The position numbers and the translations under genes are program-made. The notes beneath the pieces were generated by a model that worked only from the letters and a program-made list of their open reading frames with translations, was not told where the DNA came from and searched no databases. From Nonlabens ponticola (GTDB lineage Bacteria > Bacteroidota > Bacteroidia > Flavobacteriales > Flavobacteriaceae), in NCBI RefSeq assembly GCF_003966335.1, contig NZ_CP034549.1, forward strand, positions 1,770,001 to 1,802,000: DNA of 32,000 nt, written 5' to 3'. Shown here in pieces: positions 1 through 7,974 of this stretch (position 1 is the stretch's first letter; each line of letters starts with the position of its first letter).

Positions 1-34
1 TTTTAGCTATTTGATATAATTCTTTTAAATTCAT
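1..34 (-). CDS. N-terminal fragment of the next cassette ORF (MNLKELYQIAK...), runs off the window
   Basis: ATG at 34-32 on the minus strand, 26 nt downstream of repeat R1. Same position relative to the repeat as the other cassette ORFs. Only 11 codons are visible. Confidence 0.3.
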   Translation of the reverse strand, partial: MNLKELYQIAK

Positions 35-60
35 ATTGTCTTTGGTTTGTCAAATTGCAC

Positions 61-188
61 ACAACGGTCTCGGCTATGAGTAGTTGCGTGGGTTAGCCTT
101 GTTTTCTCAAATGTACCCAACCCGTAGAAAATTTCGTAGAAATTTTTGGATGACCACAAACCGAGCAATTGTGTATAGCCCGTGTTGT
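61..188 (-). repeat. attC-like repeat R1 (128 bp)
   Basis: ACAAC (61-65) ... GTTGT (184-188). Arms GGCTATGAGTAGTTGC / GCAATTGTGTATAGCC. Inner hairpin AAAATTTC-GTA-GAAATTTT around 127-145. Confidence 0.85.
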
Positions 189-199
189 AAAACGTTTAT

Positions 200-802
200 T
201 TAGTAGCAATGAAGCGTTCGATGTTCCTCTTCTTCGTGATAATTTATTTCGCCACTAATAGCGTCGATTAGTAGTATTTCATCCTTTGAATAACATTTCT
301 CCTCGTAAAGCGTGTTGAAAACTTTCCATTCATATTTGTCAGTATGAATATTCCACTCCAATCTCATTGTTATAGGCGATACAGCTTTCTTTAATTTTAT
401 TTTCGATACGATGTTTTCGACTTGTTTTTTGGTCAGAAAATTTGAGTTTTCATTTTTGAGCAAATATTCCGGTATTCGCTCATCAAAATACATATCAATA
501 AATTTCAATGAGGTATCAAATTCCATATAAACTCCAAGATGTACATTTTCGAACGTGAAATTTGGATGGTTTAAATCATATAAAACTTCATATCTATCAA
601 AAGGCGAAGAAATCACATCTAAGCTATCAGTTTTGGCTAGCCGAGACTCTTTATCTAAACTGAAGTATTCAATTAAATGTTTTCCGAAATGGGCATTTAA
701 TACACTATCTGCTTTCACTAAAATTTGAGAGGCAGTATGATTTTGACCATTGCCATGGTAAGCCATTGAAACAAAAAAGAAAAATGTAATTAAAGGTTTC
801 AA
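200..802 (-). CDS. Cassette ORF: exported protein of unknown function, possible PepSY-like C-terminal region
   Basis: 200-aa ORF. TTG start 13 nt from R2. N-terminal hydrophobic signal-like segment KPLITFFFFVSMAY. C-terminal pattern LTKKQVENIV...YEWKV...LLIDAISGEI resembles PepSY domains. TAA stop 11 nt from R1. Confidence 0.6.
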   Translation of the reverse strand: MKPLITFFFFVSMAYHGNGQNHTASQILVKADSVLNAHFGKHLIEYFSLDKESRLAKTDSLDVISSPFDRYEVLYDLNHPNFTFENVHLGVYMEFDTSLKFIDMYFDERIPEYLLKNENSNFLTKKQVENIVSKIKLKKAVSPITMRLEWNIHTDKYEWKVFNTLYEEKCYSKDEILLIDAISGEINYHEEEEHRTLHCY

Positions 803-815
803 TTCTAAATGTTTT

Positions 816-942
816 ACAACGGTCTCAGCTATGAGTAGTTGCGTGGTTTAGCACTTAACTTTGCAAGTACACACCTAACTGAAAATCCGCGAGGATTTTC
901 AGAAGTAGGCGAGAACCAGCAATTACTTATAGCCATTGTTGT
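816..942 (-). repeat. attC-like repeat R2 (127 bp)
   Basis: ACAAC (816-820) ... GTTGT (938-942). Arms AGCTATGAGTAGTTGC / GCAATTACTTATAGCC. Inner hairpin GAAAATCC-GCGA-GGATTTTC at 881-900. Confidence 0.85.
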
Positions 943-951
943 ACACAGTAT

Positions 952-1734
952 TTATTTACTTAATTCTATTTGAAATTTTGTCGCATTAAATGCTGCTTGC
1001 AAACCTCTTAAATTTGTTTCAGATTTATTTTGTTCAAATAATTCAGCCAAGTATTCAGCTTGTTTGGTCACATTATCATTCTCCTTTTTAAATATTTGAT
1101 ATTTTAAAAGAATCAAATTCGCCATGATTTTATCTGAAATAGTTATATCACCTTGGTTTAGGTATTCCTTTATTGTACTTCCTATCTCGGAATCGTTTTC
1201 AGATAGTTCATCGAATAAGTAAGCATTAGCCAAGTCAGATTTATTCATAGTTGAGTAATCGTTTTGGTCAGACATATCTTTTCGGTAAGTCATTTTGTTG
1301 CCATTTAGAAAATACCATCTGGTGTAAGAATCATTTTCCATTTTGATTTCTTTTTCAAAAGCTTTTTTCTTTACAGTCCAATTTGTGAAAGCAATCAAAA
1401 GTTCAGTTCCGTCATCTTTCTTTAATATGGTAAATCGAATCAAGTAATTTCTTTTCCCTGGTTTTTCAATTTCGATGTCTAATTTATTTTCTACAGAAAC
1501 ATATTTTTTCAATGCTTTTAGAACTGATGAAACATCTTCAGGACTTGCTTCAGGAAATAAGTTTTCTCTTAAAAACAAATCAATGTATAAGTAATGAGTT
1601 AAATAAAAATCATCCATTTTCAGATAATTCGCCTCTGTCAAATGTTCGGTTTTGATATTGATTTTGTCTGATTGAGAATATCCAAAATTTGTGAATATTG
1701 CTAAAAGTAAAAGTGTGATTATTTTTCTGTTCAT
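952..1734 (-). CDS. Cassette ORF: exported protein of unknown function
   Basis: 260-aa ORF with ATG start. Signal-like N-terminus MNRKIITLLLLAIFTNFGYSQ. TAA stop 9 nt from R2. Confidence 0.65.
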   Translation of the reverse strand: MNRKIITLLLLAIFTNFGYSQSDKINIKTEHLTEANYLKMDDFYLTHYLYIDLFLRENLFPEASPEDVSSVLKALKKYVSVENKLDIEIEKPGKRNYLIRFTILKKDDGTELLIAFTNWTVKKKAFEKEIKMENDSYTRWYFLNGNKMTYRKDMSDQNDYSTMNKSDLANAYLFDELSENDSEIGSTIKEYLNQGDITISDKIMANLILLKYQIFKKENDNVTKQAEYLAELFEQNKSETNLRGLQAAFNATKFQIELSK

Positions 1735-1754
1735 TCTGTTGGGTTATATTGTGT

Positions 1755-1881
1755 ACAACGGTCTCGGCTATGAGTAGTTGCGTGGTTTAGTACTTAACTT
1801 TGCAAGTACACACCAAGTTGGAAATTCCGCAGGAATTTCAAAAGTAGGCGAGTAGAAGCAATTACTTATAGCCATTGTTGT
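1755..1881 (-). repeat. attC-like repeat R3 (127 bp)
   Basis: ACAAC (1755-1759) ... GTTGT (1877-1881). Arms GGCTATGAGTAGTTGC / GCAATTACTTATAGCC. Inner hairpin GAAATTCC-GCA-GGAATTTC at 1821-1839. Confidence 0.85.
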
Positions 1882-1891
1882 ATGCTGGCTT

Positions 1892-3388
1892 TTAAAGTCT
1901 CATCATTACCTCCGTTAATTTATTTTTTCTAATTTTCCATTGAAATTCTCTTAACTCCTCTATTTCAATGTTGCCATCTTTCGCTTTTAAAGTTTCAATG
2001 AAATCTCTTACCGTTTTGTCATTCCTTTGCCTTAATATGCAATGGTAAGTTAGTCCAACAAAGAAATATCCATCTTCTTTAGCTCTTTCAATAAATTCGA
2101 CTTTGTGGTCAGCTAGATCTACAACTTTACCATTAATTTCAGCGTACCCATTTTGATATTCACTGTATGATATGTGATGCTCATCATCAACAATTGCAGT
2201 ATGAAATGTCTCTTCTCCTTCAACAATAAATGGTTCTGACTTATTATGATGAACTAAAATGAAGTCATTAAAAACACTGTTGTCATAGAATACCCAAATT
2301 TCTTTTATTGAGTATTCTGAATCCCAAAATTTCCAGGTAGCTAACCCTTTTCTTGTTAGTGTAAAATCAATATTTCCAGAACCATCGTGCCACCACAGTT
2401 TATTATCAAATAGTTCTTCATTATCCTTAAAGGTTTGGAAAAGACTATCTATTCGTTCTAAATCATTGCTATGAACAAAGCCCCAGTTATTTTTTGGAAA
2501 ATTACTACGAACAACTCTATTAAAGTCGTACATATATTCGAAAATATCTTTTTCTCTACTATCCTTTATATATTGTTTGATGTCTGCAATGCTTTGGAAT
2601 CTTTGGCTTGGTTCATTTTTTAAACAATTTTCAATAACTCCATTAAACATTCTCTCATCTTCTATTTTGAGAGAAATTCTTTTTCTTCCCGTGCCTCTGT
2701 GTGTATTTCCTGTAGCAAACCATTGTAGAATTTGGCCAATTGCATATATATCCATAGTCGGATGTGAATCTTTGCCGGCTATTTCTTGTTCTGGTGCAGA
2801 AAAAAGTCTATTACCAATTCTTTCATTCTTGACAGTTTTTGCTCGGATTTCAAAAATTTCAGGATTGTAACTGGCGATTCCAAAATCTGCTAAAACATAT
2901 TTTCCATCTTTAACTAAAATGTTTTCTGGTTTTAAGTCTCGATGAATAATGCCTTGACTATGTATTTCATCTACTGCATCCAATAAAAAATTAAGTAGTT
3001 TAATGAAATTTTGACCCTTGTTTTCTGATTCATCAAGTTTTAATGAACTTTCATATTCCTTCATCATTATCACTGGAATAATCGCAGAACCCTCTTCATC
3101 CTCGAGGTTTAGCAAATCGTAATCCACATATTTAACGATGAAATTCGTTTTCTCAATAGTTACTATGTTGAAATATTCTGCTAAAAAACGCTCGGTCTTT
3201 GTTTTTAGAGATTTTCCAGAGGTATTACTCAAAAGAAATTTGAAAGCAAATGTCTTTCCGAAAATTTCACCTTTGTATACAATTCCGTTGCCACCTTCAC
3301 CAATTTTATCAATCAAATTTATTTCTCCAACAGAAAGCTGAATCTTATTTTTATTGTCTTTTAAATATCTTGAAAATCGTTCTTTCAT
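1892..3388 (-). CDS. Cassette ORF: Ser/Thr protein kinase domain fused to a ~200-aa C-terminal domain of unknown function
   Basis: 498-aa ORF. Glycine loop GEGGNG plus lysine in FAFKF. Catalytic loop HRDLKPENILV. DFG (LADFGIA). APE-like SAPE. No signal peptide. Confidence 0.85.
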   Translation of the reverse strand: MKERFSRYLKDNKNKIQLSVGEINLIDKIGEGGNGIVYKGEIFGKTFAFKFLLSNTSGKSLKTKTERFLAEYFNIVTIEKTNFIVKYVDYDLLNLEDEEGSAIIPVIMMKEYESSLKLDESENKGQNFIKLLNFLLDAVDEIHSQGIIHRDLKPENILVKDGKYVLADFGIASYNPEIFEIRAKTVKNERIGNRLFSAPEQEIAGKDSHPTMDIYAIGQILQWFATGNTHRGTGRKRISLKIEDERMFNGVIENCLKNEPSQRFQSIADIKQYIKDSREKDIFEYMYDFNRVVRSNFPKNNWGFVHSNDLERIDSLFQTFKDNEELFDNKLWWHDGSGNIDFTLTRKGLATWKFWDSEYSIKEIWVFYDNSVFNDFILVHHNKSEPFIVEGEETFHTAIVDDEHHISYSEYQNGYAEINGKVVDLADHKVEFIERAKEDGYFFVGLTYHCILRQRNDKTVRDFIETLKAKDGNIEIEELREFQWKIRKNKLTEVMMRL

Positions 3389-3408
3389 TTTGTTATTTCA
3401 GCTTGCAT

Positions 3409-3536
3409 ACAACGGTTATGTATAAATATAGTTGCGGGTTTGCGTGCGAAGAATTTCCGAAGGAAATTTAGATGTAGCAAATACGCAACTGCCTTTATTT
3501 TAGCACTAAACCGCAATTATTTTTATACGGTGTTGT
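3409..3536 (-). repeat. attC-like repeat R4 (128 bp, divergent sequence, same structure)
   Basis: ACAAC (3409-3413) ... GTTGT (3532-3536). Arms GTATAAATATAGTTGC / GCAATTATTTTTATAC still pair. Inner hairpin AATTTCC-GAA-GGAAATT at 3452-3468. Confidence 0.8.
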
Positions 3537-3545
3537 GCATAGTTT

Positions 3546-3935
3546 TTATTCACATACTTTATTTTTTTCAATCCACGGATTAATAAATTTCCTTTCAGTT
3601 CCGAGTATTGTTTTCATTTCGGGTTCGTCGAAAATTAGATAGAAATTTTTGTCTTTTTCCACGTATTTAAATTTCAATTCAGTACAATATTTTCCAGTGC
3701 CGTGATTTACGAGCATACTTATAATTCCATCTTCAATTTTTATGTCTTTCACGGATTCCACCATAATAAAATTAACTTTTATATCAGAAGGAATTTCTTT
3801 TTCACTATAATTTCCAAGGTCATTCATTTCAATCATTTCGTCAACGATTTCTTGAATCCATTTGTCAATAGATTTTTCTTGGTTGATTTGGATGTTTGAA
3901 ATTCCAATCAAAAATGTCAGTAAAATTATTTTCAT
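3546..3935 (-). CDS. Cassette ORF: small exported protein of unknown function
   Basis: 129-aa ORF with ATG start. Signal-like N-terminus MKIILLTFLIGISNIQ. TAA stop 9 nt from R4. Confidence 0.6.
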   Translation of the reverse strand: MKIILLTFLIGISNIQINQEKSIDKWIQEIVDEMIEMNDLGNYSEKEIPSDIKVNFIMVESVKDIKIEDGIISMLVNHGTGKYCTELKFKYVEKDKNFYLIFDEPEMKTILGTERKFINPWIEKNKVCE

Positions 3936-3956
3936 ATTCTGTTTCTCAAATTATGC

Positions 3957-4083
3957 ACAACGGTTTGGGCTATGAACAGTTGCGTGGGTTAGCACGGACT
4001 TCTACAAGTAAACTGCAAGCTGAAAATTCCGCAGGAATTTTCAGGATAAGCCTGTAATAGCAATTGTTTATAGCCATTGTTGT
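3957..4083 (-). repeat. attC-like repeat R5 (127 bp)
   Basis: ACAAC (3957-3961) ... GTTGT (4079-4083). Arms GGCTATGAACAGTTGC / GCAATTGTTTATAGCC. Inner hairpin GAAAATTCC-GCA-GGAATTTTC within 4021-4043. Confidence 0.85.
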
Positions 4084-4093
4084 AAAACGTTTT

Positions 4094-4690
4094 TTACTCC
4101 AAATATTCTACATCAGAACGAACTTTTTCACGCCATTTATTTCCGTATTTTTCGTCCATTAGTTCAAATATCCGTTCGTTATATTGTTCAATACATTCCG
4201 AAATTGGTGGTTCACAACCAAAATCAAAATATTTAACTTTAAATCTTTTCTCAAATCGATTGCCGGAAGGTGAGTTTGCAATTGGTGCAATTGAACCAAC
4301 AAGTAATAAATTTGCCGTTCCGTTTTTCCAGTCAGATTCTGCACGTTCAGCATTATATTCACAATCCGCTTTTAATTCAAACGTCACGTTATTAATTCCG
4401 TTTTTCGTTTCGACGTCAAACTTTTGTTTTCAGTAACCGAATGCAGAGATCTCTATAATATATTTTTGATTAGGTTCAAGATATTCAATTCGGAAATTAC
4501 CTAAACTGTCAGCCATAATTAATGGTTGTTTAGTAATCAATTCTTGAACATAAATATCCGAAATTGGTTTTTCTCCTGAAACTCCGCTAATCACCTTTCC
4601 TACGATTTCAGTTTGTCCGTATATAATTCCGCAAACTAATATTAAAATCAGTTTGATAATGTTTTTCTGTATGTTCAGATTTTTCTTCAA
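4094..4690 (-). pseudogene. Cassette ORF split by one in-frame TGA: N-terminal CarboxypepD_reg-like exported segment (4430-4690) plus a C-terminal part (4094-4387)
   Basis: The 86-aa and 97-aa ORFs are in the same frame. 4388-4429 is 42 nt (14 sense codons, KQKFDVETKNGINN) and the only interruption is the TGA at 4432-4430. The downstream ORF has only a GTG start. There is no attC-like repeat between them. Confidence 0.5.
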
Positions 4691-4697
4691 ATGTTTT

Positions 4698-4825
4698 ACA
4701 ACGGTCTAGGCTATGCGCAGTTGCGCGGTTCATCCTTATTTTTCCAAATATATTCAAACCGTAGAAAATTCCGCAGGAATTTTCGGATGAGCAATGACAG
4801 AGCAATTGCGTATAGCCATTGTTGT
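4698..4825 (-). repeat. attC-like repeat R6 (128 bp)
   Basis: ACAAC (4698-4702) ... GTTGT (4821-4825). Arms GGCTATGCGCAGTTGC / GCAATTGCGTATAGCC. Inner hairpin GAAAATTCC-GCA-GGAATTTTC at 4764-4784. Confidence 0.85.
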
Positions 4826-4834
4826 AAAACGTTA

Positions 4835-5599
4835 TTATTTATAAACTCTTTCATAAATTCCTATTTCGCAACCGCTACATGTGCTCAATATAGAATTTCT
4901 CTTTTTAATATGTTTAATTAGTATTTCATCCAACTTGCTTAGTTCGAAACTGGTGTTCTCGTCTAAATATTCCAAAGCGTCTACTCCGTAAGTTTGTAAT
5001 TCTGGATTAAATGATTTTAACCATTCTCTAAACTTTTTCGCATTCCTTTTTTTATCGAATTTGAAATCATTATATCTTGGTATTTTGTAAGAAATAGGCG
5101 CATATCCACAAAAGTATCCGTAAATATGATAAGATAATACCTGACTGATAAAGTCTTCTTTTTTTAAGTTGGTTTGGTAGAATACATTATGATTACTTAA
5201 ATATTCGTCAAACGTAGTTTCTTCAAAGTAAAATTCGGTGTCTTTTCGATAAGTATCAAAACTTATTAAACCTACTATGATATTATTTTTTTTGAACGTA
5301 TGAACATTATACGATTTATTTTTTATCTGTTTGTTATCAGGATAATTAATGTTTACTTCATATACTGATTCGGTTAAACCGTAGTCGATATCTCTAGCAT
5401 ATAGGAATCCGCCAAAACTATATTTAGGATTAACCTCTCTTATGGTTTTGAAATCAATCAACTTTAAAGTGTCCAAATCAAAATTTTGGTATTCTTTAAA
5501 ATAGTTCTGAATTTCAGCTACCGCGTTCATTTCCGCTTGACTTTGAGAAAAAGACAATAATGGAATAAGCAATAAAATAAAAAAGTTTAGTGTCCTCAA
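4835..5599 (-). CDS. First cassette ORF: exported protein of unknown function
   Basis: 254-aa ORF. TTG start (no in-frame ATG before a stop). Signal-like N-terminus RTLNFFILLLIPLLSFSQSQ. TAA stop 9 nt from R6. Confidence 0.6.
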   Translation of the reverse strand: MRTLNFFILLLIPLLSFSQSQAEMNAVAEIQNYFKEYQNFDLDTLKLIDFKTIREVNPKYSFGGFLYARDIDYGLTESVYEVNINYPDNKQIKNKSYNVHTFKKNNIIVGLISFDTYRKDTEFYFEETTFDEYLSNHNVFYQTNLKKEDFISQVLSYHIYGYFCGYAPISYKIPRYNDFKFDKKRNAKKFREWLKSFNPELQTYGVDALEYLDENTSFELSKLDEILIKHIKKRNSILSTCSGCEIGIYERVYK

Positions 5600-5616
5600 A
5601 GGTGTTTATTAAAATG

Positions 5617-5632
5617 TTTTACAACGGTTATA
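5617..5632 (-). other. attI-like half-site (left arm of the repeat only)
   Basis: TTTTACAACGGTTATA matches the flank, ACAAC core and spacer of the repeats (AAATGTTTTACAACGG is shared with R2 and R6). The sequence then becomes unique, with no right arm. It lies between the first cassette and the recombinase. Confidence 0.7.
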
Positions 5633-5636
5633 TAAA

Positions 5637-5667
5637 CAAACCTAAGCCATTTATTACCAGTTTACAA
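5637..5667 (-). promoter_or_regulatory. Candidate Pc-like promoter reading into the cassette array
   Basis: The minus strand reads ATTG (5668-5665), a 20-nt spacer, then TAGGTTTG (5644-5637). This resembles the Bacteroidetes -33 TTTG / -7 TAnnTTTG consensus and is positioned just upstream of the half-site. Motif match only. Confidence 0.25.
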
Positions 5668-5674
5668 TACTATA

Positions 5675-5699
5675 TGGTAGGTATATGCAAACCTTTTGA
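5675..5699 (+). repeat. Direct repeat DR-a (TGGTAGGTATATGCAAACCTTTTGA)
   Basis: Matches DR-b at 23 positions with two 1-nt indels, 48 bp upstream of DR-b. Contains a 4-codon mini-ORF, ATG CAA ACC TTT TGA. Confidence 0.7.
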
Positions 5700-5707
5700 T
5701 AGATTTG
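5700..5707 (+). promoter_or_regulatory. Candidate -7 box (TAGATTTG) for the recombinase gene
   Basis: Matches TAnnTTTG 25 nt upstream of the ATG at 5732. No convincing -33 element found. Confidence 0.2.
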
Positions 5708-5722
5708 AACATAATTCACTTT

Positions 5723-5745
5723 TGGTAGTATATGCAAACCTTTGA
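5723..5745 (+). repeat. Direct repeat DR-b (TGGTAGTATATGCAAACCTTTGA), overlaps the recombinase start codon
   Basis: Second copy of DR-a. Its ATG (5732) opens the 277-aa recombinase ORF. Confidence 0.7.
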
Positions 5746-6565
5746 CGATTTTAGGCAGTTAATGACCATTAAAAGGTATGCGCCCAACACTATTGATTCT
5801 TATCGTGGTTTACTCATTGCCTTTCAAAAATTCCTAGGGCATGATCATCCTATCGACGAGTTGCAGGATCGTCAAATAAAAGAGGCAGTAAGCGAGGTAG
5901 TCGTAGCAAAGTCTCTTGCCGTTGCCACGCAAAAGCAACTACTGTCTGCACTAAAACTCTATTTTAAAGAGATGCACAGACGCGATCTTGACTTTTATAG
6001 CGTCTATCCTAGAGTAAAGCCTAGACCTATTCCAGTGATTTTGAGCACGCAGGAAGTAGGAGCAATTTTATCGCATACCAAAAACTTGAAACATAAAGCC
6101 ATGCTAACGCTAATTTATGCGTTGGGATTACGCAGCGGCGAGCTCATCAATCTCAAAATCAGCGACATCGACAAACATCGCAAGCTGGTACACATTAAAA
6201 GTTCCAAAAACAAAAAGGATCGTATCATTCCTTTTCCTGATGGTCTGGGCGAGCTTTTAAATAAGTACTACAAGGAATACCAACCTACGGAATTCTTATT
6301 CAACGGCCAGTCCACAAATCAGTACCACGCGCAAAGCCTGCGCAAGGTGTTCCACAAATCGTGTAAGCTTGCTGGAATCAACAAGAAAGTTACACTGCAC
6401 AGTTTGCGCCACGCCTATGCCACGCACCTCATGGATGCAGGAACTGATTTGCGTGTCATTAAGGAATTGCTGGGTCACAACAGTATCAAGACAACATTGA
6501 TCTACACGCATGTAACCAATAAAACGCTTCAACACTTGCCCAATCCGCTGGATTTTATCAAATAA
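5732..6565 (+). CDS. Tyrosine site-specific recombinase, XerC/XerD-like, lacking the IntI-specific insertion
   Basis: 277 aa. N-terminal SAM-like core-binding region (YAPNTIDSYRGLL, ATQKQLLSALKLYF). Catalytic signature LGLRSGE (Arg I), HSLRHAYATH (His-x-x-Arg), LLGHNSIKTTLIYTHV (His, Tyr). About 60 aa separate KKDR from LRH. Confidence 0.9.
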   Translation: MQTFDDFRQLMTIKRYAPNTIDSYRGLLIAFQKFLGHDHPIDELQDRQIKEAVSEVVVAKSLAVATQKQLLSALKLYFKEMHRRDLDFYSVYPRVKPRPIPVILSTQEVGAILSHTKNLKHKAMLTLIYALGLRSGELINLKISDIDKHRKLVHIKSSKNKKDRIIPFPDGLGELLNKYYKEYQPTEFLFNGQSTNQYHAQSLRKVFHKSCKLAGINKKVTLHSLRHAYATHLMDAGTDLRVIKELLGHNSIKTTLIYTHVTNKTLQHLPNPLDFIK

Positions 6566-6614
6566 CTCACCGATCAAATTCATATTTGATATAAACTATT
6601 TCCACTTAATCAAA

Positions 6615-6642
6615 AAAGCCGATTCCATTAAGAATCGGCTTT
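6615..6642. terminator. Hairpin between convergent genes (probable bidirectional terminator)
   Basis: AAAGCCGATTC / GAATCGGCTTT 11-bp stem with a 6-nt loop. An A-run on the left gives a T-run for the minus-strand transcript. Confidence 0.6.
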
Positions 6643-6666
6643 GATAAATTAGAAAATAGCTATAAA

Positions 6667-7974
6667 CTATTTTTGTCGCTCGTATTTACTCATGTAGCGC
6701 TCGTATAAATCTTTTTGCCTGGTGTCCAGCGAGATGTCACGGCCGTCGATAAAGGCGCGAGTCAATTTATTGGTACGCATGTCCAACGCATTGCCCTGTG
6801 ATATGAATAGGGTAGCGCTCTTACCTTCTTCCAGCGAGCCATAATCAGCGTCTATGCCTAGGATCTTGGCAGGATTGAGCGTTATCATCATCAAGGCTTG
6901 TTCCGCATCCACGCCATGGCCAGTGAGCGTTCCTGCATAGAATGGCACGTTGCGCACCTGGTGACGCTCCATACTACCAGAATTCTCCAACGCAACGGTG
7001 ACTCCAGCATCTGCTAGGATTTTTGGAAACTTGTACGGCATGTCAAAGTCGGCGTCCTCACGTGCCGGTAAGTTATGTACACGACCTGCGAGTACGGGAA
7101 CTCCAGCGGCCGCAATGTCACCAGCTATTTCCTGTGCACCACGAGCTCCTACCAGTACTAGGTTTTTTACATTGTTAGCTTTCGCGAAAGCTAACACATC
7201 AACAATCGCCTTCTCACCAGATACATGCATGTACAAGTTTGCATTGCCGTCCAGAACACGTCGCATCGCCTCCATTTTCAAGTCCTTGTCTGCTGGATTG
7301 TCTGTAGATTTATAAGCGACCGCTTGACGCATAAAGTCGCGCAGTGCCTCAATGTCCTCATCATAATCCTTGCTAGGCTCGATAGGCCCGTAATTAGGCC
7401 ACGATCCCGATCTACGGAAGCTGGCAGGCCAGTTCACATGAATACCATCATCCATGCGCACGGCAGCATCTTCCCAGTTCCACGCGTCTAGTTGCACCAC
7501 GCTGGACTGTCCAGAGATGCGACCACCACGCGGTACCGTTTGAGCGATCAATATACCATTGGGCCTCATGGTTTCTACCACGCGAGACTCTGCATTGTAA
7601 GCAATTATACTACGTATATGCGGATTAAAAACTCCCAACTCGCGCTGGTCGTCACTGGCATTTACGGCATCAACTTCTACCAATCCTAGCGTAGTGTTGG
7701 CAGCAATAAAGCCAGGATACACGTGCATTCCTGTGGCATCAATAACCTCACCTTTGGGTGCCATTCTTACCGTGGTAGCATCTGCAATGGCGGTGACTTT
7801 CCCGTTTTCTATAACAATGACTGAATTTTCAATTACCTCGCCATTACCTATATGAGCGGTACCATTCATAATGGTGTAAGCTCCAGTCTGTGGTGCGGCT
7901 GGCATTTGTTGGGCTAGGGCAGTGGTGCCTAGCATCGCCAGTACTATATATAATATGTTTTTCATGTCTTTCAT
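6667..7974 (-). CDS. Amidohydrolase-family protein, exported (HxH motif absent)
   Basis: Start trimmed to MKDMKNILYIVLAMLGTTALAQQ (ATG at 7974; alternative at 7965). Amidohydrolase-like N-terminal beta-sandwich pattern VIENGKV...VIDATGMHVYPGF. The expected HxH position reads ANTTLG. Confidence 0.8.
   Translation of the reverse strand: MKDMKNILYIVLAMLGTTALAQQMPAAPQTGAYTIMNGTAHIGNGEVIENSVIVIENGKVTAIADATTVRMAPKGEVIDATGMHVYPGFIAANTTLGLVEVDAVNASDDQRELGVFNPHIRSIIAYNAESRVVETMRPNGILIAQTVPRGGRISGQSSVVQLDAWNWEDAAVRMDDGIHVNWPASFRRSGSWPNYGPIEPSKDYDEDIEALRDFMRQAVAYKSTDNPADKDLKMEAMRRVLDGNANLYMHVSGEKAIVDVLAFAKANNVKNLVLVGARGAQEIAGDIAAAGVPVLAGRVHNLPAREDADFDMPYKFPKILADAGVTVALENSGSMERHQVRNVPFYAGTLTGHGVDAEQALMMITLNPAKILGIDADYGSLEEGKSATLFISQGNALDMRTNKLTRAFIDGRDISLDTRQKDLYERYMSKYERQK
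7174..7195. repeat. Iterated palindrome copy 1 (core GCTTTCGCGAAAGC 7178-7191, extended to a 22-bp perfect palindrome GTTAGCTTTCGCGAAAGCTAAC)
   Basis: Read directly. Inside the 453-aa amidohydrolase, encodes LAFAKAN. Confidence 0.95.

Follow-up and report, generated by a model that had tools for sequence, protein, structure and literature searches.

What kind of genetic element is formed by six long palindromic repeats that alternate with single open reading frames (ORFs) next to a divergent tyrosine recombinase gene in the flavobacterium Nonlabens ponticola? The locus occupies the left end of a stretch of 32,000 nucleotides (contig NZ_CP034549.1 of assembly GCF_003966335.1, positions 1,770,001 to 1,802,000), which is referred to below as the window and whose own numbering is used for its features. 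A preliminary description of the window, made from its letters without database searches, found that the architecture of the locus matches a sedentary chromosomal integron and added that, with both the repeats and the recombinase non-canonical, it could be an undescribed integron-like system. On the comparative sequence evidence presented here, the locus is very probably a platform for gene capture on the chromosome, with the mode of working of an integron, built from a Xer/XerA-like recombinase and from cassettes that end in hairpin repeats. Of the earlier reading, the mode of working stands and the membership does not: the recombinase indeed departs from the canon, lacking the insertion that is specific to integron integrases (IntI), and so do the repeats, most of which carry G·T wobbles instead of extrahelical bases. 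The term "undescribed" holds in part as well. The rAID-1 arrays (short for recombinase-associated acquired interbacterial defence) are a distant relative that has been described, and our literature search found no description of these arrays in Flavobacteriaceae.

Array architecture and cassette junctions

The six repeats are co-oriented imperfect palindromes of 127-128 bp with the termini ACAAC...GTTGT, situated between successive minus-strand ORFs, and all of them were found where the preliminary description had placed them. Every repeat starts with ACAACGGT and ends with TGTTGT. Measured from start to start, the co-oriented units are 755, 939, 1654, 548, and 741 bp long, which agrees with the range of 548-1654 bp given earlier, and the description of one ORF or one disrupted ORF per unit is borne out too, the unit between 4083 and 4698 being a single frame with a single in-frame stop. 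Stop codons lie 9-11 nt from the repeat and start codons 7-21 nt from the next one in the window cassettes. The array ends, again as described, in a half copy of the repeat (TTTTACAACGGT, 5617-5628), 100 bp before the start of the divergent recombinase gene at 5732. At its other end the window opens inside another cassette, so the array extends further left. No additional copy was found in the other 25 kb of the window, either by pattern search or with an nhmmer profile. The G+C content is 31.7% in the array and 28-32% in the cassette ORFs, against 42.7% in the recombinase gene and 42.1% in the rest of the window.

For a wider sample, we searched one genome from each prokaryotic species for a skeleton of 17 bases taken from the repeat (ACAACGGT-N6-TA-N5-AGTTGCG), which gave at least 120 stretches, nearly all from Flavobacteriaceae among the matches listed. 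An nhmmer profile built from the six window repeats, and then a broader profile, were run on the fetched loci (given below by their L numbers); the former detected at least 456 copies in at least 122 loci and the latter at least 535 copies. Across these 535 copies in the window and the fetched loci, no locus with repeats of mixed orientation was found. Inter-repeat units, of which 313 were measured, are 684 bp long in the median, and in 255 of the 305 units having an ORF the longest one runs opposite to the "+" orientation of the repeat. Family-wide, the median distance from stop codon to repeat is 6 nt and that from start codon to the next repeat is 20 nt. Loci with a single repeat are one-cassette arrays, which end in the same AAC and docking sequence as the longer ones.

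The ends of the cassettes are delimited by a pairing constraint. In 213 of 276 cases, the 7 nt that follow the GTT of a repeat are complementary to those that precede the AAC of the next repeat, on the far side of the ORF (criterion: at least 6 of 8 positions complementary, with a position-anchored search for GTT). The controls gave 13 of 359 for the other flank of the same repeat, 12 of 192 for the second next repeat, and ~3.5% for random pairs. The rule holds for all five window cassettes and for the half site at 5617. Cassettes that fail it have long spacers (median 1756 bp vs 627 bp), which suggests that degenerate repeats were missed inside them. Position 8 of the flank pair is G:T in 185 of 212 cases, and positions 9-11 are paired again. 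Among 381 flanks there are 162 distinct 7-mers, and every Watson-Crick pair type is used; with flanks that are hypervariable yet complementary, it is the pairing that is conserved and not the sequence. Within a single repeat, the flanks outside AAC/GTT are variable and not mutually complementary in an alignment of 114 repeats. By analogy, such pairing across the ORF is the cassette-junction signature of integrons, in which the bases following the core GTT are part of the next cassette and match the inverse core of that cassette. It implies that both flanks of one cassette come together when it is circular or folded.

Repeat fold and strand bias

Five of the six window repeats, treated as single-stranded DNA, fold significantly better than shuffled sequences on the + strand (z from -3.5 to -7.3). 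Inside the repeat, RNAalifold and explicit pair counting delineate a 16-bp stem in which 97.6% of cells are paired, compared with 81.7% when shuffled and 28-47% when slid. Compensatory changes occur in 10 of the 16 stem pairs, and the covariation score (0.397 vs 0.107) was not exceeded by any of 500 shuffles. At two positions of the stem the pair is G·T, at one of them in 106 and at the other in 112 of 114 repeats, and these pairs turn into A·C mismatches on the complementary strand. Since both wobbles are near-invariant, the strand complementary to the ORFs (+ in the window) is the better folder: it is the more stable one in 325 of 339 repeats, and the difference averages -3.1 kcal/mol (p = 8e-56).

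Between the AAC/GTT stem and the 16-bp stem there is an asymmetric internal loop, whose 5' side has 6 nt and whose 3' side has 3 nt (+ strand). In most repeats the 16-bp stem is continuous, without extrahelical bases, and a single extra base occurs in one subtype only (TGGTTTCGTTGCG). The extrahelical bases that set the choice of strand in integrons are missing from most of these repeats, and the bottom-strand bias is present all the same.

Cassette sharing and turnover

In an all-versus-all comparison of the inter-repeat units, whole cassettes were found to be common to different species and genera at 88-97.5% nucleotide identity, while the cassettes next to them are unrelated. Examples are the pairs Winogradskyella costae/Formosa sp. 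A9 (94.7%), Tamlana/Algibacter (88.3%), and a Flavobacteriaceae metagenome-assembled genome/Algibacter (91.4%). On the side of the ORF start, the homology of shared cassettes always ends at the AACG of the upstream repeat. On the other side two patterns are seen. In one, homology spans the whole downstream repeat (L059/L023, L118/L003); in the other, it stops exactly at GTT with a differing repeat interior beyond (L002/L020, L118/L037, L105/L084, L003/L037). Cassettes of the second pattern are 84-96% identical, and the minimal shared unit is GTT-flank-ORF-flank-AAC. In the pair L118/L063, compensatory changes were observed in two flanks that are 600 bp apart.

The preliminary description had proposed comparing relatives for changes of cassettes, and such changes were indeed found. 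Ten contigs from different samples share one identical recombinase (Aequorivita, P0116) and have two single-base differences from the gene to the docking-site AAC; left of this AAC, the sequences and first genes of the same contigs are of at least four kinds that are unrelated to each other. These natural populations provide the strongest evidence of ongoing cassette turnover.

Docking site and platform layout

The site at which the array meets the recombinase gene is conserved beyond N. ponticola. We examined recombinase orthologues (52-65% identical) from N. arenilitoris, Lacinutrix mariniflava, Aquimarina, and Aequorivita. Their genomic neighbourhoods all differ, and upstream of every one of them small ORFs alternate with these repeats in a divergent array. 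The window and the four orthologue genomes share an AAC(G/T)NTTATATA.AC.AA site ~100 bp from the start codon, preceded by a cassette flank. A search for array ends, taken as an AAC that comes after the complement of the flank of the last repeat, returned 43 candidates, of which ~27 are true array ends with docking sequence; at least 20 of these ~27 have a recombinase of the family within ~100-150 bp. Just as an attI site stands beside an integrase gene, a conserved docking site thus stands beside the recombinase gene, with the population breakpoint exactly at its AAC.

Within the docking region, at 5637-5644, stands CAAACCTA, or TAGGTTTG when read on the cassette strand. The -7 promoter consensus of Bacteroidetes is TAnnTTTG, and TAGGTTTG fits it; as a guess from this match, it might be a promoter box that faces and drives the cassettes. 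Two direct copies of GGTAG(G)TATATGCAAACCTTT, 47 bp apart, stand between the docking site and the start of the recombinase gene, whose ATG the second copy overlaps; N. arenilitoris has the sequence in partly conserved form. These copies may serve as accessory binding sites or in regulation and recall, by analogy, the accessory direct repeats of attI1.

Recombinases of the family come in two layouts. In the first, that of the window, a "short" recombinase of 277 amino acids (aa) is divergent from the cassettes. In the second, a "long" recombinase of 370-390 aa, whose N-terminal extension of ~90-100 aa has no Pfam match, is usually co-directional with the cassettes; in loci of this class (L014, L075, L002, L012, L050, L196, L200), it occupies the same end of the array, and the repeats belong to the same family.

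Named genera with repeats number more than 40, mostly Flavobacteriaceae (among the matches listed), and include Winogradskyella, Polaribacter, Tenacibaculum, Zobellia, Lacinutrix, Formosa, Maribacter, Dokdonia, and Aequorivita. Roseivirga and Brumimicrobium carry repeats too, though they stand outside Flavobacteriaceae.

Several loci deserve a separate mention. On the chromosome of Lacinutrix neustonica, whose genome is complete, co-oriented repeats were found in two loci that are 104 kb apart (L053, 1,000,001-1,008,000, and L096, 888,001-896,000); if these belonged to one continuous array, it would be a "super-array" of more than 100 kb. In Winogradskyella maritima (L017, 1-4200), an array ends at a docking-like AACTCATAAATATACGCAAT directly beside an aconitase gene, without a recombinase, and is an analogue of the integrase-less attC clusters (CALIN) of integron surveys. 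Among viral contigs (IMG/VR), the number of matches in the pattern scan is compatible with chance by a rough estimate, and a profile match is present in 16 of 43 contigs; five contigs classified as viral (L235, L242, L243, L238, L251) have two to four co-oriented repeats. These "viral" contigs may be misclassified chromosomal fragments or arrays adjacent to prophages.

Recombinase

The 277-aa recombinase consists of the SAM-like and catalytic domains only, and its catalytic residues R134, K159, H223, R226, H249, and Y258 are invariant in the family. With three NCBIfam models it scores below the cut-off (XerA, 196.6 bits vs 220; XerD, 184 vs 330; the integron integrase model TIGR02249, 182.5 vs 265), and PRK15417 gives 110 vs 435 bits; TIGR02249 and PRK15417 both match in two stretches. 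XerA (PDB: 5hxy) aligns end to end and IntI4 (PDB: 2a3v) in two pieces, and these two are the closest solved structures in Foldseek, at equal rank. The break falls on the IntI-specific insertion, where residues 170-200 of the query (31 residues) stand opposite residues 171-244 of IntI4 (74 residues). In the AlphaFold model (predicted local distance difference test score, pLDDT, of 82.8), a helix and a loop occupy this place. The additional domain that is specific to IntI (I2 helix region) is accordingly missing from the window recombinase, as is a score above the model cut-offs. In integron integrases, the insertion contacts extrahelical bases and blocks second-strand exchange (PMC4792948). 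The recombinase is a neighbour of both Xer and IntI, without the defining feature of integron integrases.

A housekeeping Xer/dif system was considered and rejected: the genes flanking the recombinase differ in every genus examined, and the upstream array is constant wherever the contig reaches upstream. Lacinutrix has a separate Xer-like gene of 298 aa at a distance of 9 kb from the array recombinase. The database name of a Zobellia homologue is "Integron-related integrase", so that the resemblance has been noticed by annotators.

More distant relatives from metagenomes are mostly 38-45% identical to the window recombinase and heterogeneous. In three contigs (L192, 1-8000; L153, 3900-5166; L128, 5500-7500), recombinases that are 39-43% identical are flanked by other repeat families; the repeats of L192 and L153 are 127-167 nt long, end in ...TTGTTA or CCGTTA, and have ORF-sized gaps between them. 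The superfamily seems to contain several repeat lineages. A human-gut contig (L173) is an erm-linked mobile element without an array. Acinetobacter plasmids (H11-H35) encode a tyrosine recombinase whose identity to the "long" recombinase of Flavobacteriaceae is 56.6% over the C-terminal 61% of the latter; one matching record, FJ012881.1 (uncultured bacterium), annotates it as TnpF. So surprisingly close a relative of the "long" recombinase in Proteobacteria hints at a transfer from Bacteroidota.

Cassette contents

Two of the window cassettes could be assigned to families. The kinase cassette (1892-3388) matches Pfam Pkinase (E value 8e-24), PADLOC PD-T4-6 (6.5e-24), and NCBIfam MAD6 (1.4e-19); its 498-aa product resembles the single-gene anti-phage kinases PD-T4-6 and MADS6, which makes it, from these matches, a candidate defence cassette. 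The gene at 4094-4690 matches the NCBIfam FEKKY_dom model (6e-28) and, with its in-frame stop, is either a pseudogene or a read-through gene. The other window cassettes encode small secreted proteins without family matches. No immunity family was found among the seven cassette proteins of the window in the family-library scans.

Outside the window, 148 cassette ORFs of Flavobacteriaceae match 102 Pfam families, each at most three times, including GNAT acetyltransferases, ParE toxins, DinB, SLATT, AbiTii, NADAR, DMP19, and kinases. Matches of immunity type among the 148 are scattered only (DMP19, NADAR), and most of the ORFs have no assignment. In this respect the cassettes resemble those of chromosomal integrons more closely than those of the immunity-dominated rAID-1 arrays.

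Comparison with known systems

Like an integron, the locus combines a recombinase gene with a docking site next to it and with compact cassettes of one ORF each, which are co-oriented and form a divergent array. In both, a cassette ends in an imperfect palindrome AAC...GTT, the boundary lies inside the repeat, and the bottom strand folds better; in both, the content comprises GNAT, toxin-antitoxin, and defence genes, mostly without known function. All six window repeats have the AAC/GTT ends, and the homology breakpoints are at AAC/GTT. There are also differences. The terminal stem is 10-14 bp of free sequence here and the 7-bp consensus RYYYAAC/GTTRRRY in integrons, and, unlike in integrons, the repeat sequence of the window family is conserved across genera, with interiors sometimes swapped at GTT. 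A canonical integron was ruled out by the missing IntI insertion and by the lack of extrahelical bases in most stems. A survey with IntegronFinder reported nothing from Bacteroidetes beyond In0 elements and a single complete integron, that of Salinibacter, and no integrons in Flavobacteriia (PMC9024848), and IntegronFinder detected no integron in a Tenacibaculum genome (PMC10013915).

The rAID-1 arrays of gut Bacteroidales were called "reminiscent of integrons" in their first description (Ross et al. 2019). They are defined by a XerD-like recombinase that is >44% identical to B. fragilis BF9343_RS08045, by two or more co-directional genes downstream, by a G+C content of the array genes of at most 41% together with conserved intergenic repeats, and by cassettes that code for orphan toxin-immunity proteins; close homologues of the recombinase (>50% identity) were reported in Bacteroidales only (doi 10.1101/471110). 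A paper of 2025 still calls the way in which rAID-1 acquires its genes unknown (doi 10.1101/2025.05.03.651265), and the rAID-1 papers give no anatomy of the recombination site and no crossover point.

Our own comparison is with one rAID-1 array, from a plasmid record of Bacteroides ovatus (L260). Its recombinase is 38% identical to that of the window over all 277 aa (E value 6e-59) and 41% identical to the "long" class of Flavobacteriaceae. On the ORF strand, the plan of the rAID-1 repeat is flank-AAC-AAG-[hairpin]-NAACC-ATT-flank, and that of the window repeat is flank-AAC-AAT-[hairpin]-NNNACC-GTT-flank. In the B. ovatus array, 6 of 7 flank pairs across the ORF are complementary, and flanks of the same repeat match at 1-4 of 8 positions. 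However, the rAID-1 repeats are short (~45 nt from AAC to ATT, in gaps of 65-80 nt) with a short bulged hairpin, whereas those of the window are 128 nt long and have, besides a stem of 16 bp, a structured interior; the recombinase of rAID-1 has an N-terminal extension of ~90 aa and is co-directional with the genes, whereas that of the window has 277 aa and is divergent; and rAID-1 cassettes are mostly toxin-immunity genes, whereas those of Flavobacteriaceae are heterogeneous.

Held against the published definition, the identity of 38% to the B. ovatus rAID-1 recombinase, used here as a proxy, is below the limit of 44%, with clear homology. The window cassettes lie upstream of the recombinase gene and are divergent from it, although the "long" Flavobacteriaceae class has the co-directional layout. 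The G+C content of the cassette ORFs is within the limit, and repeats are present, though they differ from those of rAID-1 in length and sequence. The locus is therefore outside the integron family by its integrase and outside the published rAID-1 criteria; it works like an integron and is a distant homologue of rAID-1. From the one B. ovatus array, rAID-1 and the window system appear to be branches of one superfamily, and the repeat families of L192 and L153, which are different ones but share the ends, point the same way. According to Supplementary Table S6 of the rAID-1 study, many cassette genes of Bacteroides rAID-1 arrays have their closest non-rAID homologue in Flavobacteriales (doi 10.1101/471110). 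A cassette pool common to rAID-1 and the Flavobacteriaceae arrays would fit with this.

Two Xer-based systems are also worth comparing. Integration of the phage CTXphi, an integrative mobile element exploiting Xer (IMEX), via XerCD has been called the only reaction that resembles cassette recombination (Escudero et al. 2016, PMC4792948). As far as the literature allows the comparison, the likeness consists in a Xer-type recombinase without an IntI-like insertion acting on a hairpin without extrahelical bases, whose stem mimics duplex DNA. In contrast to the window system, the phage borrows the enzymes of dimer resolution and integrates at dif, and it has neither a dedicated recombinase nor a docking site of its own nor a cassette array. 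The pdif modules of Acinetobacter plasmids are gene modules bounded by 28-bp duplex XerC/XerD sites of alternating orientation and rely on host Xer proteins. They resemble the window cassettes as discrete modules that are bounded by Xer-type sites and occur in varying contexts; the window differs from them in its directly repeated 128-nt hairpins and in its dedicated recombinase and docking site.

Proposed mechanism and alternative explanations

In the proposed mechanism, the 277-aa recombinase, as the presumed catalyst, would recombine the docking site (5623-5650) with the 128-nt repeats, whereby single-gene cassettes would be inserted, excised, and reshuffled. A cassette, read on the + strand, would comprise the C of AAC, the repeat, GTT with a flank of 7-11 nt, the ORF, the opposite flank, and the AA of the next AAC. 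In the excised circle the two flanks would meet and pair, which would lengthen the AAC/GTT stem to 10-14 bp and complete the hairpin site. The site would most likely be used as folded single-stranded DNA of the ORF-complementary strand, as in integrons and in the XerCD-mediated integration of CTXphi. The folded form is pictured as a variable paired "R" stem ending in AAC/GTT, the 6-nt/3-nt loop, and the conserved 16-bp "L" stem, in which the two G·T wobbles (A·C on the other strand) would mark the strand. Cleavage would take place between the A and the C of AAC, and the cassettes would be transcribed from a promoter in the docking region. For the first cassette, the circle junction is predicted to read ...AATGTTTTACAA directly followed by CGGTCTAGGC..., with the a-flank (5615-5624) before the junction and the C of AAC (4702) after it.

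Several observations weigh against this mechanism. Among the homologous cassette pairs, about one in two has not inherited the interior of the downstream repeat together with the ORF. Homology that spans the whole downstream repeat is the pattern expected of an integron. The arrest of homology at GTT is not predicted by a simple integron model and suggests a need for crossovers at both repeat ends, for example through occasional top-strand events, or for gene conversion. Deletions via the hairpin of the other strand would yield GTT junctions, and the near-symmetrical hairpin may permit them. Without the IntI insertion, the handling of hairpins by a plain Xer-like enzyme is unexplained, and some arrays, for example that of L017, have no recombinase beside them.

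As an alternative, the same platform and recombinase could work by double-stranded exchange of Xer type, with the two ends of the repeat as duplex binding sites. A plain Xer/XerA-like enzyme without the IntI insertion, stems that mostly lack extrahelical bases and mimic a duplex, and crossover points at both the AAC and the GTT end speak for it. We nevertheless regard it as unlikely, because flank arms that are hypervariable (162 7-mers) yet complementary conserve no sequence that a protein could read, and because the conserved G·T wobbles are confined to one strand, the better-folding one in 325 of 339 repeats. Moreover, paired inverted sites should sometimes invert the segment between them, and 0 of 535 repeats are inverted.

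A different thought is that the repeats have nothing to do with the recombinase and are an element like repetitive extragenic palindromes or miniature inverted-repeat transposable elements (REP/MITE), which spread into intergenic spaces, for example by targeting AAC-GTT palindromes. The repeats are conserved, palindromic, intergenic, and numerous, many matches lie at the ends of small contigs, where short-read assemblies are broken, and ORF-plus-flank units at times have different repeat interiors. This reading was raised in the preliminary description itself and is now largely refuted as far as the window and the fetched loci reach, which puts its probability very low. No scattered copies or mixed orientations were found there; the copies are confined to co-oriented arrays with ORF-sized spacing and are missing from the other 25 kb of the window; the arrays end at a conserved docking site beside a recombinase of one family, the "solitary" copies being one-cassette arrays; and the junction that varies in populations is at the docking site and not at random intergenic places. 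The least probable of the explanations, by a little, is that the repeats act in RNA, as terminators, processing sites, or stabilizing hairpins within a long operon that is inherited vertically. Strong hairpins 6-11 nt after stop codons are what one would expect of such elements, but the G·T pairs are on the non-sense strand, and the mRNA would have A·C mismatches instead and fold worse in 325 of 339 cases. There is also no Rfam match for the repeats, and the complementarity of flanks across the ORF, the sharing of cassettes between genera, and the turnover at a fixed AAC would be left without explanation. A CRISPR-like (clustered regularly interspaced short palindromic repeats) arrangement had been ruled out from its spacing, the spacers being ORFs of 0.5-1.6 kb.

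A broader proposal can be made, which we put forward tentatively and rate slightly below an even chance. Bacteroidota may own a phylum-wide integron-like class of which rAID-1 is the gut branch. In this class, a Xer-like recombinase without the I2 insertion would act on single-stranded hairpins largely without extrahelical bases; the strand would be marked by the wobbles and the loop, and both ends of the site would be open to crossovers. Such a class could be an independent invention of the integron principle or a surviving "pre-integron" stage. A "pre-integron" stage of this kind was postulated from CTXphi (Escudero et al. 2016, PMC4792948).

Features of the window

The features of the array and the platform are collected in Table 1. 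To the right of the recombinase gene there are ordinary housekeeping genes (amidohydrolases, Met-zincin, KatG, helicase, and others). A strong terminator-like hairpin with a T-run (6589-6719) lies between the convergent recombinase and amidohydrolase genes, and the sole weak Rfam matches (mir-3145 and L20 leader), which are spurious, fall on this hairpin.

Table 1. Positions of repeats, cassette genes, docking region, and recombinase gene in the window
Feature	Position	Strand	Remarks
Start of a further cassette ORF	1..33	-	ATG at 33; reads leftwards past the window edge; minus-strand translation MNLKELYQIAK...
Repeat 1, attC-like, 128 nt	61..188	+	AAC 63-65, GTT 184-186; + is the better-folding (bottom) strand
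Cassette ORF, 200 aa	200..802	-	Secreted or lipoprotein-like; no family match
Repeat 2	816..942	+	AAC 818-820, GTT 938-940
Cassette ORF, 260 aa	952..1734	-	Signal peptide; no family match
Repeat 3	1755..1881	+	AAC 1757-1759, GTT 1877-1879
Cassette ORF, 498 aa	1892..3388	-	Ser/Thr protein kinase domain and C-terminal domain without assignment
Repeat 4, interior of another subtype	3409..3536	+	AAC 3411-3413, GTT 3532-3534
Cassette ORF, 129 aa	3546..3935	-	Signal peptide; no family match
Repeat 5	3957..4083	+	AAC 3959-3961, GTT 4079-4081
Cassette gene, ~197 codons	4094..4690	-	FEKKY domain in C-terminal part; single in-frame stop at ~4430
Repeat 6	4698..4825	+	AAC 4700-4702, GTT 4821-4823
First cassette ORF (closest to recombinase), 254 aa	4835..5599	-	Signal peptide; no family match
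attI-like docking site	5615..5650	+	Cassette-derived flank TGTTTTAC, AAC 5623-5625, then platform-specific GGTTATATAAACAAACCTAAGCC
Two direct copies of GGTAG(G)TATATGCAAACCTTT	5675..5745	+	Cores 5682-5696 and 5729-5743
Array recombinase, 277 aa	5732..6565	+	Tyrosine recombinase, divergent from cassettes

Implications

The rule of flank complementarity is a simple computational means of delimiting cassettes, which can be applied to thousands of genomes and metagenomes. For rAID-1, the comparison supplies a concrete mechanistic model, with a site structure, a crossover triplet, a strand, a docking site, and a definition of the cassette. A dedicated cassette system with hairpin sites and without the integron-specific insertion also makes the origin of integron integrases from Xer-like ancestors experimentally approachable. 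As for the family itself, marine Flavobacteriaceae (more than 40 genera among the matches listed) hold an equivalent of the integron that current integron finders apparently miss, and its arrays hold a large exchangeable pool of mostly uncharacterized genes, including defence-like and toxin-antitoxin cassettes.

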